From IMG/VR virus record IMGVR_UViG_642979322_000011: a stretch of 64,000 nt of DNA. One strand, given 5' to 3'. The stretch's first letter is position 1. Each line of letters begins with the position of its first letter. A program made the position numbers. This document shows positions 12,001-15,000 of this stretch, piece by piece. Source of the stretch: a virus. Lineage: Duplodnaviria; Heunggongvirae; Uroviricota; Caudoviricetes.

Positions 12001-15000
12001 ATCGCACCTACCCGGATATTATCGTGAGGATGCTTCATCGCCATTGCTCCCCAAATACAAAACCAATTTCAGCCAGTGCCTCGTCCATTTTTTCGATGAA
12101 CTCCGGCACCATCTCATCAAAACTCGCCATGTACTTTTCATCCCGCTCGACCACGACATAATGCAGGCCTTCACGCTTCATGCGTGGGTCGTAGTTGGCG
12201 AAGTACCAGGCGTCCTTGTCTGTAACCCACATGCTGAATTGCACCTGGGCCATGTAAGCAGGCTTGATAGCGTCAAAGCCGCCAAGCCGGAATTTCATGA
12301 AGTCGCGGGAAGTAAAAGGGCATTTAAGCTCAAGACCGTTACCGTCGCTGCATAAACCGTCGGGAGAGCAGGCGGTGCGCATGCTTTCGTCACGAAAAAT
12401 TATTGGCGTTTCCGAGACGGTAACATCCGCGATAAATTCGAAGAGGGCACGGGCATCATCTTCGTATTGCTTTCCCCATGCGAGCGACTTAGCGTTAACT
12501 TCCGGTGCCACGCCAGTACAAACTTCAGCCAGCAGGGTGTGGAAGTATGACATTTTTGTATCAGGCCATTTGCTGCCGGAACGTGGCTTTGCTATCACAT
12601 TGTGAACTTCTGAAGCAGTGATAACACCGAGTCTCAGCTTGTGCCATCCATCATCGCCCTGGTCGAGGCTGGTAATATCCACGCCAGTTCGCTGGAGAAT
12701 AATTTCTGGTGTCATGACACGGCCTCGCTGTTATTTTCCGTGGTGGCGTGAATTTTCGCTTCCGCCGTGGCCTTGTTTCTGGCAGCTTTCTTTTTGACAA
12801 AATCAAGCGTTTTGACAGCTTCTTCCTGACTGAGATATTCATGTGATGCAATCGTGCGACGGAATGTTTTGGAACATAAGGGAAGCAGGTCATCCCATGT
12901 CTTGTTAATTTCGGTGATTGCCTGAGTGATCTCATTGATAATCTCATCTGATGCGGGAGTGACGTCACGCTCAGGGATGTGATCAGCATTCAGGATGATA
13001 CCTTCACCGCCCTGAGTGTTCAGGTAGTCGATAGCTGTATCCAGGCGATCGCGACGGGGCCAGTATTTGCTGGCGCGCTTAACAATGGCTTTTCTGGCCA
13101 TTTCATCGGGGAAACTATCCCACGGGCTACTTCCTCCGTTATTTCCGGCTTTGCTGCACGCCCTGATGACCTCGATTTCCCTGTTGCTCATCTCTTCGGT
13201 CAGATAGTCGCCTTCGGATGTTTTTACGACACAATAACCGCCAATGCGTGCGCCCCTGTCTACGAATGGGTTGTATTTGTGCGTGGGGGCGCAGTCAATA
13301 CCGTTGGACTCGTAAATGTCCTTCTCGTAAACAAGTTTGCATTGCCCCCACTGAATGGCTCCTGTGACCTGTGCCAGATGCAGAAGCCCCATATAACTGA
13401 TATCCAGGCATACAGCACCGCCTCGTGGGACCAGATACGCCAGCTTGCTGGACGGGTTCAGGGTTATGCCGATGGCGGCAACATTGATGATAGCGTTCTG
13501 TGCGCTGGGCAGATTTGCCTGTGCTGTTTTAGCCAGAAAGTCATTTTTCTGGAATTGCTGAATTGCAAACTGACTTTCCTTCGCCCATGTCAGCGTCGGT
13601 TCAGTTAATGCCTCGCAGAAAAAGCGCTCCTGCTGCTTAACAAATTCAACGATATCGAACATTTTTTGGTCCTGAAAATCAGAAAGGACAGGGGGAGAAT
13701 TTTCTCTCCCATTCTTCTTCCGCCCGAGCATAGGCGATCGCTGAGATATAATCGTTGTACGCCTCTTCAGCTTTTTCGCCAGTGAGTGCCAGTTGGGCTT
13801 CTTTGGGTAAAAAAAGGCTGCTCATAAGCAATGGTTTATCGGGGAACATGCTGATAAGCTCCTGCGCCCGATCATCAATCCATTTATCCTTTTCATCCTG
13901 AATTTGCTGATTAATCCAGCGACGCTCCTCTATGCGGTCGCAGGTGAGGTATGCGTTCATGGCGGAACTCCTGATTCCGGTTAATGCATTAAATTAATTT
14001 GTCGGGAAAGCTGACATACAGGGCAGTTACATTCTTCCTCCTGCTCCTTAGCGAAGAAATATGCAGCGGCCTGTAATGCGATGTCTTCTGGATGTTCCGC
14101 GATAAACATAACATTGCCTTCCGTATCAATAACAGAAATAGCCTCATCAGACAGGACGACAAAATAGGCGATGATTTTATCATCCATAAAAACTTCTCCC
14201 ATTATCGTTCCTGCTGGAGTTACGACGCTTTTTACATTGATATTTATTTTTTGATTGAGCATGATATTTCCTTTCAGGCTGGTGAGATTAACGGTTGGCC
14301 TTTATTGTTCAGGTAAACTTCTATTGCATCTGAGATAATGCGAATTTTTTCAATCAGTGAATGTGCGTAAAGTGCATTATTAACGTTCGCTGACGCCATG
14401 TAATAACGCCCGTTGTAAAGAATTGCTGTACCGGGTTTAACGTCCTCGCGAGAAACTAATGCGGTTCCGTAGTGAGGTTTGAGCATGACAAATCCTCCGG
14501 TTAATTAATCCAGATATTTAATTTAATCCCCGATATGTGGTCGGGGATGGGGTTAATTAAAGATTTACGTTGAAACCAAAGCGGGAAGACTTTTCTGATG
14601 TACGGGAAATATCCAGCAATTGACGGCGCATTTCTTCCGTCAGATGCTTGAAGGCGTTAAATTCGGCGACAGCCGCATCGACGTTATAGCCCTTGCTGTG
14701 TAGTTCGTTGAGGATGCGCATAGTTGGGCTTGGCATATCGAAGAGCACGGAAGCATCAAGGCTGATAACCTTGCGATCAACATAGTTCATCGTGGCGTAG
14801 GGGTGATGCTCTGAAAACCACGATAAAGGAAAATTGATATTCATCGCAGGAGAAGACAGGGCCAGTTGTTTCTGTTCCCATAGTTGTTTTTCCATGCGAT
14901 CGAATTCAGCAATGTAGGCTTCTTTGAAAGCGGCGGCTTTTTTGCCAGTGAACCCCATCACCAGGAAAACGAATCCGTTTTTGGTGATTTGGTACATTGG

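Follow-up and report, generated by a model that had tools for sequence, protein, structure and literature searches.

The recombination locus

The DNA analysed here, referred to as the window, is a stretch of 64,000 nt from the IMG/VR virus record IMGVR_UViG_642979322_000011 (Caudoviricetes), and all gene coordinates are window positions. It encodes a single-strand annealing protein (annealase) at 12712-13662, which an original prediction, made from the sequence alone, had described as a chimera: a RecT-family core with a tail resembling the C-terminus of the lambda annealase Bet (Redbeta), partnered with a lambda-type exonuclease (Exo). An open reading frame (ORF) call and its translation confirm the position and place the gene on the minus strand, with 316 codons and a stop. 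The translated protein contains SKAGNNGGSSPW...EMARKAIVKRASKYWP and DVTPASDEIINEITQAITEINKTWDDLLPLCSKTFRR...AVKTLDFVKKKAA, that is, every motif that had been quoted in the prediction. An AGGA ribosome-binding site precedes the ATG at 13662, and the same 951-nt coding sequence, with the same start, is annotated as 'RecT-like ssDNA annealing protein' in RefSeq NC_049917, the record of a phage with 99% identity. PHROG 148 ('RecT-like') covers the full length of the protein (E=1.3e-95). The region is 99% identical to Stx2-converting phages, e.g. F004, Lyz12581Vzw, TL-2011c and P13374, and the window phage is a Shiga-toxin phage. Databases file the annealase as 'recombinase RecT', in hundreds of E. 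coli entries and in 62 phage records.

The annealase is the middle gene of a block ordered gamL, annealase and exo (Table 1), which is the order of lambda Red-type coupling. The lambda genes bet (32025-32810) and exo (31348-32028) share 4 nt, matching the ATGA arrangement found in the window.

Table 1. Position of the recombination genes in the window and of the parts distinguished within them
Feature	Position	Strand	Basis
Annealase, RecT-type core plus Redbeta-type C-terminal domain	12712..13662	-	ORF, translation, NC_049917, PHROG 148
Annealase residues 1-215, RecT-type annealing core	13018..13662	-	PF03837, TIGR00616, BLASTP to Rac RecT, AlphaFold2/Foldseek, tblastn
Annealase residues 187-215, EMARKAIVKRASKYWPRRDRLDTAIDYLN, near-invariant core end	13018..13104	-	Invariant columns in alignments A1 and A3; parent switch in P0010
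Annealase residues 216-233, predicted flexible linker where the sequence classes diverge	12964..13017	-	AlphaFold2 pLDDT, alignment
Annealase residues 234-300, Redbeta-type three-helix C-terminal domain, proposed module for docking to Exo and SSB	12763..12963	-	phmmer against PDB, AlphaFold2, Foldseek
Annealase residues 301-316 and stop, lineage-specific C-terminal extension	12712..12762	-	Alignment, nucleotide identity, low pLDDT at the end
ATGA overlap of annealase stop and exo start, GTGTCATGACACCAG on the minus strand	12712..12715	-	Sequence
Lambda-type exonuclease gene, 226 aa	12035..12715	-	88% amino acid identity to lambda Exo; PF09588 YqaJ 99.6 bits
[quoted passage not shown]
gamL, phi80-type host-nuclease inhibitor, first gene of the gam-annealase-exo block	13679..13960	-	NF033500 phi80_GamL 149.8 bits; phrog_1050

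The annealing core

Residues 31-204 of the annealase match Pfam family PF03837 (RecT) with 87.4 bits (cutoff 24), as compared to 116 bits for lambda Bet and 189 bits for Rac RecT. Pfam is unable to separate Bet from RecT, as both are members of PF03837, while the NCBIfam models make the distinction. The window protein passes TIGR00616 ('rect') with 67.4 bits (cutoff 52.65) and has no match to bet_lambda (TIGR01913) at E<=0.1, whereas lambda Bet matches bet_lambda alone (169.5 bits). With 68 bits it stays far below the cutoff of 296 for NF007351, the equivalog model for Rac RecT, and it is therefore a member of the RecT family and not an orthologue of Rac RecT.

The alignments agree with the profiles. 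BLASTP aligns residues 56-202 to Rac RecT (34% identity, E=3e-19), and this includes the predicted core signature, SKAGNNG..PW and K(R/K)..KYxP. Lambda Bet is aligned only from residue 178 onward, that is in the C-terminal part, and BLASTP gives no alignment to Bet residues 1-139. A conventional Bet homologue throughout, which would have contradicted the proposed chimera, is thus not what was found: the core aligns with RecT and only the C-terminal part with Bet. When residues 1-214 were used in a tblastn search of 50,697 phage records, the proteins retrieved were all of the RecT type, from coliphages, vibriophages, mycobacteriophages and others.

An AlphaFold2 model shows the core with a predicted local distance difference test score (pLDDT) of about 80. 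Its best Foldseek match in the PDB is LiRecT (7ub2_E of 7ub2; E=3e-7, 197 columns), and the structure of the Redbeta N-terminal domain is absent from the top 50 matches of the annealase model. By sequence and by model, residues 1-215 are thus assigned as a RecT-type (Rad52-like) core and not as one of the Bet type. Annealing of single-stranded DNA (ssDNA) and oligomerisation are predicted from this membership.

The C-terminal domain

The claim that the last 70 or so residues track the lambda Bet C-terminus is well supported. [quoted passage not shown] Identity to the lambda Bet CTD is 52-55% (about 53%), and the region of homology corresponds to Redbeta residues 195-261. In the AlphaFold2 model, a linker with pLDDT <50 (residues 204-231) is followed by three helices (239-251, 256-267 and 279-314) with pLDDT 84-90. 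Foldseek superimposes the modelled tail on 6m9k_D with a root-mean-square deviation (rmsd) of 0.8 A over 65 columns, a TM score of 0.91 and 52% identity. Sequence and model together thus identify residues 234-300 as a Redbeta-type three-helix CTD, with the conserved motifs ERD(I/V)TP, KTWDxDLLPLCS and EAVKxLxF. Pfam has no model for this domain; therefore, ordinary annotation gives only 'RecT' and the hybrid stays hidden. The DNA encoding the tail is only 53-67% identical to lambda in a sliding-window alignment, and the C-terminal extension (residues 301-316), with a nucleotide identity to lambda of 22-48%, has no counterpart in lambda Bet.

The neighbouring exonuclease and the predicted contact interface

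The gene that overlaps the annealase stop codon encodes a protein with 88% identity (199/226) to lambda Exo. The RecE C-terminal nuclease domain, searched with phmmer, matches nothing around the window genes and nothing in the related loci, so that the adjacent nuclease is Exo-like and not RecE-like, as had been predicted, and the locus is not of the Rac RecE/RecT type. That RecT goes with RecE is a rule specific to Rac, because RecT-family cores beside Exo/YqaJ-type nucleases are common in general.

In the 6m9k complex, a pocket of the CTD formed by L223, I227, F249 and L250 receives helix E of Exo (T90, L91, F94, T95), with peripheral contacts involving Q226, R229, Q252, K253 and E256 of the CTD and Q83, D87, L184 and Y186 of Exo (PMC6393309). 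Formation of the complex depends on L91, F94, L223 and F249, each of which is essential, and K253 also plays an important part (PMC6393309). The window pair keeps all five of these critical residues (CTD L223, F249 and K253; Exo L91 and F94, in lambda numbering) as well as CTD R229 and Exo Q83, D87, L184 and Y186. Changes relative to lambda are Q226K, I227T, L250V, Q252K and E256R in the CTD and T90A and T95I in Exo. The combination of Exo T95I with CTD I227T resembles a reciprocal polar/apolar exchange across the predicted interface, which we take as a hint only because it is a single lineage-specific event.

At the nucleotide level, the window exo gene is a mosaic relative to lambda: in the sliding-window alignment, identity is about 80% over the 5' two-thirds of the gene and reaches 92-98% downstream of about 12210. 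Identity is lowest (60-65%) over 12390-12480, corresponding to codons 78-108 or so and including helix E. These values place a recent lambda-like junction inside exo. A junction at the exo ATG, as suggested by a single 87% high-scoring segment pair (HSP) of blastn that begins there, was discarded, since the sliding-window alignment shows this HSP to be a composite. Within the region 11610-12715, the 92-98% lambda-like stretch spans Exo residues 170-226 (approximately), orf60a, orf63 and orf61.

Tail classes on related cores

A full-length search of a protein index returned 5,539 relatives at E<=0.001, and in the best 120 of these the core is 58-97% identical to that of the window protein. A patch at residues 187-215 is nearly invariant (EMARKxIVKRASKYWPxxxRLDxAIxxxN), and directly after it (...NTxGGEG) the proteins fall into discrete sequence classes. 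Relatives whose cores share 58-100% identity have either a Bet-like tail or one unrelated to it, the change coming just behind ...YWPRRDRLDxAI..N. Bet-like tails of varying divergence occur in E. coli, Serratia, Rosenbergiella, Klebsiella michiganensis, Yersinia, Morganella, Providencia and Proteus. Proteins from Salmonella, Klebsiella, Enterobacter and Lelliottia carry a different helical tail, here called class B, which has no similarity to lambda Bet and no match to a tail profile (A2) built from ten diverse Bet-like tails. The AlphaFold2 model of a class-B protein, computed as a control, again has LiRecT as its best match, and in Foldseek its three-helix C-terminal unit matches neither 6m9k nor 8tfu.

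Exchange is seen in an E. coli protein (P0010). Its first 192 or so residues are 100% identical to those of P0117, a class-B protein from Salmonella, and the remainder is 95-100% identical to the window protein. P0010 represents a recent crossover within the conserved core end (window 13018-13104), and residues 187-215 are likely to serve as the homologous crossover site for the exchange of tails. The same core bears at least two unrelated tails, and the annealase is not a one-off chimera. It belongs to a large and established family in Enterobacterales prophages and is not a recent cross between Rac RecT and lambda Bet; it is only 34% identical to the former and about 53% identical to the CTD of the latter.

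Tail type and the downstream exonuclease

The relation between tail and nuclease was analysed in 80 loci with a window-type core, one genome per GTDB species. Tails were classified with lambda Bet residues 183-261 and profile A2, and neighbourhoods with lambda Exo, a broad Exo/YqaJ hidden Markov model and the RecE nuclease domain. Bet-like tails (66-116 bits with A2) are present in 26 of the 80 loci, and all 26 have a homologue of lambda Exo (51-90% identical), the start of which lies between an overlap with the annealase stop and about 200 nt downstream of it. Among the 17 class-B loci, none has an Exo/YqaJ or RecE-type gene within ~6 kb or elsewhere in the fetched locus; 13 of the 17 extend over 8-13 kb and four are on contigs of <5 kb. 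Instead, a Sipho_Gp157 gene (PF05565, 160 aa) is directly downstream in 16 of them (L007-L016, L018, L022, L024, L042, L078 and L080, e.g. L014 6878-7360), an arrangement that the lambdoid phage HK639 also shows (locus L083, 3406-3888). Class B may thus represent a second, exonuclease-free recombination module, and its tail may pair with Gp157. Across all 43 classifiable loci, tail type predicts whether a lambda-type exo is there or not. The other 36 complete loci are mostly from outside the Enterobacterales; 35 have other tails, with a distant YqaJ-type nuclease in 24 and none in 11 of these, while L081 combines a weak match to the tail profile with an Exo that is 39% identical to lambda Exo. 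One further locus is a disrupted gene.

Tail and exonuclease also diverge together. In Mantel comparisons of pairwise identities (the 26 loci, the window and two outliers), r is 0.94 for tail versus Exo, 0.55 for core versus Exo and 0.64 for core versus tail, and identity to lambda of the CTD and of Exo correlate with a Spearman rho of 0.88. The cores nearest to that of the window (Morganella 73%, Yersinia 72%) are accompanied by Exos which are only 50-58% identical to the window Exo, and the Exos nearest to that of the window (83-86%) are accompanied by cores which are only 47-56% identical. At the contact positions the two proteins vary in concert from clade to clade: Exo L91/F94/T95 occurs with CTD L223/I227/F249/L250 in the lambda-like clade, T91/F94/Y95 with F or Y223/K227/M249 in the Morganella/Proteus/Xenorhabdus clade, and L91/F94/E95 with A223/S249 in the Yersinia/Serratia clade. 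These data show the tail to be a swappable module which travels with the exo gene rather than with the core.

The same tail on other annealase cores

When the 95-aa tail alone was searched against an index of 5.8 billion proteins, only seven short fragments matched. The tail profile, run against 1.84 billion cluster representatives, gave 60 matches at E<=0.001, including fragments, Redbeta or RecT-type proteins, and proteins of the ERF superfamily. The latter (P0138, P0157, P0179 and P0176) match PF04404 with 54-90 bits. In a relative of P0138 on a viral contig (L085), only residues 181-247 of the 251-aa ERF-core protein match Bet (residues 188-254, 46%), and the stop codon of its gene overlaps the start of an exo that is 75% identical to lambda Exo. 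The cores that bear the Bet-like tail thus comprise Redbeta, at least two sublineages of the RecT-like kind (~50% mutual identity) and ERF cores, and the tail is located before a lambda-type exo wherever the context is readable.

Several other proteins (P0156, P0170, P0172, P0176-P0178 and P0183) have an N-terminal part of ERF, RecT-like or Gp3-like character followed by two to three tandem 'GRxIxSxxELTxxEA' modules; they are apparently actinobacterial by sequence character, and 'RecT-like' refers to resemblance only, as the Pfam scan gave no RecT match. Matches of the tandem copies to the tail profile are weak (E 1e-8 to 3e-4), as are those of the same stretch to Pfam GemA, and judging by sequence they may belong to a wider family of partner-docking helices. 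Candidates for stand-alone tail domains (short proteins P0131-P0143 and P0151) were dropped, as they carry the exact lambda Bet tail behind unrelated N-termini, one of these being from Gam. Their appearance suggests that they derive from deletions, or are what is left of engineered lambda Red in strains that were sequenced.

Neighbouring genes

The nuclease inhibitor of the window is of the phi80 GamL type (NF033500) and not lambda Gam. In the related loci, either Gam type is found with either tail class (e.g. lambda-type Gam with class B in L014). Homologues of lambda orf60a (DUF1317) and orf63 (DUF1382) are nearby. The block is flanked, on the minus strand, by a Rha-family regulator (PF09669, 14557-15342) and an Ead/Ea22-like gene (PF13935, 10310-11083), both being accessory genes of the ordinary lambdoid kind. 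In the early-left region of the phage, upstream of the recombination genes, 15960-18379 (minus strand) encodes a BsuBI/PstI-type restriction endonuclease (317 aa, PF06616 and PF17728) together with an Eco57I-like N6-adenine methylase (489 aa).

Discussion

The annealase of the window phage is composed of two modules which are exchanged among its relatives, and one of these, the tail, co-occurs and co-diverges with the downstream exonuclease. Of several possible explanations, we favour a two-module annealase where a portable tail carries the partner specificity and is inherited and co-evolving together with the downstream exo gene, and we consider this reading probable. By homology, the tail is most likely a portable adaptor that would dock onto Exo and SSB. 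The suggestion in the original prediction that the tail is what lets a RecT-type core pair with Exo finds comparative support in the strict association of tail and exonuclease (43/43 loci), the Mantel correlation, the co-variation at contact positions and the ERF-core proteins. From these comparisons, we infer physical binding, the loading mechanism and a tail that on its own sets the partner specificity.

The mechanism would then proceed by analogy with lambda. [quoted passage not shown] The tail could subsequently use the same pocket to engage the SSB C-tail of the host at a replication fork, where the RecT-type core would anneal the strand to its complement. In evolution, recombination would have combined the tail with several cores (Redbeta, RecT-like ones of at least two lineages, and ERF), with exchange occurring within the conserved end of the core-coding sequence.

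Several observations weigh against this reading. Tail and exo are adjacent DNA, so that their co-occurrence and co-divergence could partly reflect linkage and not selection for compatibility. As the loci form only a few clades, there are few independent events behind the correlations. The contact positions of Exo, apart from the invariant F94, vary more than the average position of the protein (entropy 1.43 vs 0.84), but helix E ranks 48th among the 213 windows of Exo, below the most variable ones, and the variability test provides only modest support. The window tail (53%) is less lambda-like than its Exo (88%) would predict, and two hydrophobic residues of the pocket are changed (I227T, L250V), so that the fit of the window tail to its Exo is an assumption. 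Finally, on the 1.8-kb contig of the ERF-core protein P0138 (GCA_015689235.1), the next ORF has only 78 aa and is followed by a cut ORF of 94 aa, so that either the exo is split or the rule linking tail and exo has a genuine exception here.

In the main alternative, the tail would be essentially a host-SSB-binding module, its association with exo being a by-product of linkage with no selective role for Exo pairing. The Redbeta CTD binds the SSB C-tail as well as helix E of Exo, and does so via the same pocket (PMC6393309; the tail also matches 8tfu), and CTD mutations impair ssDNA recombination, which does not need Exo (PMC6393309). Linkage is expected for a contiguous tail and exo, the tail and Exo identities of the window are off the trend, and P0138 may have no full exo. 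Nevertheless, we regard this explanation as unlikely. Within the Enterobacterales, the divergence of the tails is strong (down to 25-35% identity) and parallels that of Exo. The C-tails of SSB are highly conserved across Enterobacterales hosts, and because of this a role restricted to SSB does not obviously predict such divergence. Also, the tail changes at Exo-contact positions, and in the 43 loci the breakpoints are located between core and tail and not at the boundary between the tail and the exo gene. Moreover, class-B proteins, in the same hosts and with the same SSB, bear an unrelated tail and have no exo.

It is very improbable that the protein is no chimera at all, but a conventionally diverged Bet/RecT homologue in which a Bet-like tail, ancestral to the RecT/Redbeta superfamily, has been better conserved than the core. 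Lambda Bet and RecT do share PF03837, and there is a weak match to phrog_252 'Bet-like' (E=9e-5). However, cores that are 70-100% identical carry unrelated tails, the parent switches abruptly in P0010, ERF-family cores have the same tail, and Rac RecT and LiRecT have no such domain, while lambda Bet shares the tail and shows no core similarity by BLASTP or bet_lambda. A similarity by chance or composition, conceivable for a short (about 65 aa), helical and lysine- and alanine-rich domain, has a negligible probability given E=7e-19 against the PDB, 52-55% identity, a modelled rmsd of 0.8 A to 6m9k and conserved motifs. A whole-protein Bet homologue (excluded by the mismatch of core and tail, by P0010 and by the ERF cores) and a chance similarity (excluded by E-values and rmsd) were both rejected.

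Compared with lambda Redbeta and Exo, the window system has the same gam-annealase-exo order, the ATGA overlap, an 88% identical Exo, a homologous CTD (about 53%) with L223, R229, F249 and K253 conserved, and two domains joined by a flexible linker. It differs in an N-terminal domain that is not of the Bet type, in the pocket (I227T, L250V) and in peripheral positions (Q226K, Q252K, E256R), in an extra C-terminal extension of 16 residues, and in a Gam of the phi80 GamL type. Rac RecT of E. coli K-12 shares TIGR00616 and PF03837, 34% identity over residues 56-202 and the SKAGNNGPW...K(R/K)xxKYxP motif. Unlike the window protein, it has a short, acidic C-terminus without a Redbeta-type domain, and its partner RecE is encoded upstream rather than downstream; it does not function with lambda Exo (work cited in PMC6393309 and PMC11611040). 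LiRecT of the Listeria innocua phage A118 is the best solved-structure match to the predicted core but only 15% identical to it, and its C-terminal 26-47 residues are disordered and much shorter than a Redbeta-type domain (PMC11611040, PMC9772228). HK639 gp39 and the class-B prophage proteins of Salmonella, Klebsiella and Enterobacter share the RecT-type core (~57-75% identity), the near-invariant ...KRASKYWP..RLDxAI patch and a preceding Gam or GamL gene, but have an unrelated C-terminal helical domain, followed by Sipho_Gp157, and no Exo/RecE-type nuclease within ~6 kb.

The protein and its ordinary recombination function are known already, and no new mechanism is described here; in the Stx2a phages, too, the function of the annealase is otherwise ordinary phage recombination. 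What appears to be new is a RecT-family annealase with a Redbeta-type partner-docking domain, which is part of a combinatorial core-by-tail system. In the literature on chimeric or modular annealases which we consulted (on LiRecT, Redbeta mutagenesis, portability and libraries of single-strand annealing proteins, and ETfinder), this hybrid domain picture was not found, although coverage was incomplete and an earlier description is possible. A 2023 review considered it unknown whether annealases of the RecT type and others rely on a CTD of this kind to bind partner proteins (PMC11611040). The natural hybrids answer this question in part, from sequence alone: RecT-type and ERF-type cores can bear a docking domain of the Redbeta type, and its presence coincides exactly with that of a lambda-type exonuclease downstream.

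In a stronger form of the two-module reading, partner specificity would reside entirely in an adaptor of ~65 residues, grafted onto at least three cores (Redbeta, RecT-like and ERF) and co-evolving with helix E of Exo, and to this we assign slightly better than even chances. If true, exchanging the tail of an annealase, whichever it is, would suffice to pair it with an exonuclease of choice, which would provide a design rule for recombineering, and the sister tail of class B would mark a different, exonuclease-free pathway with a partner from the Gp157 family. The loci described here offer ready natural matched and mismatched pairs for studying how the specificity between exonuclease and annealase is encoded. 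They also illustrate phage mosaicism cleanly, as the breakpoints lie within a gene and coincide with a domain boundary, in an annealase that occurs in Stx2a phages from E. coli lineages behind outbreaks.

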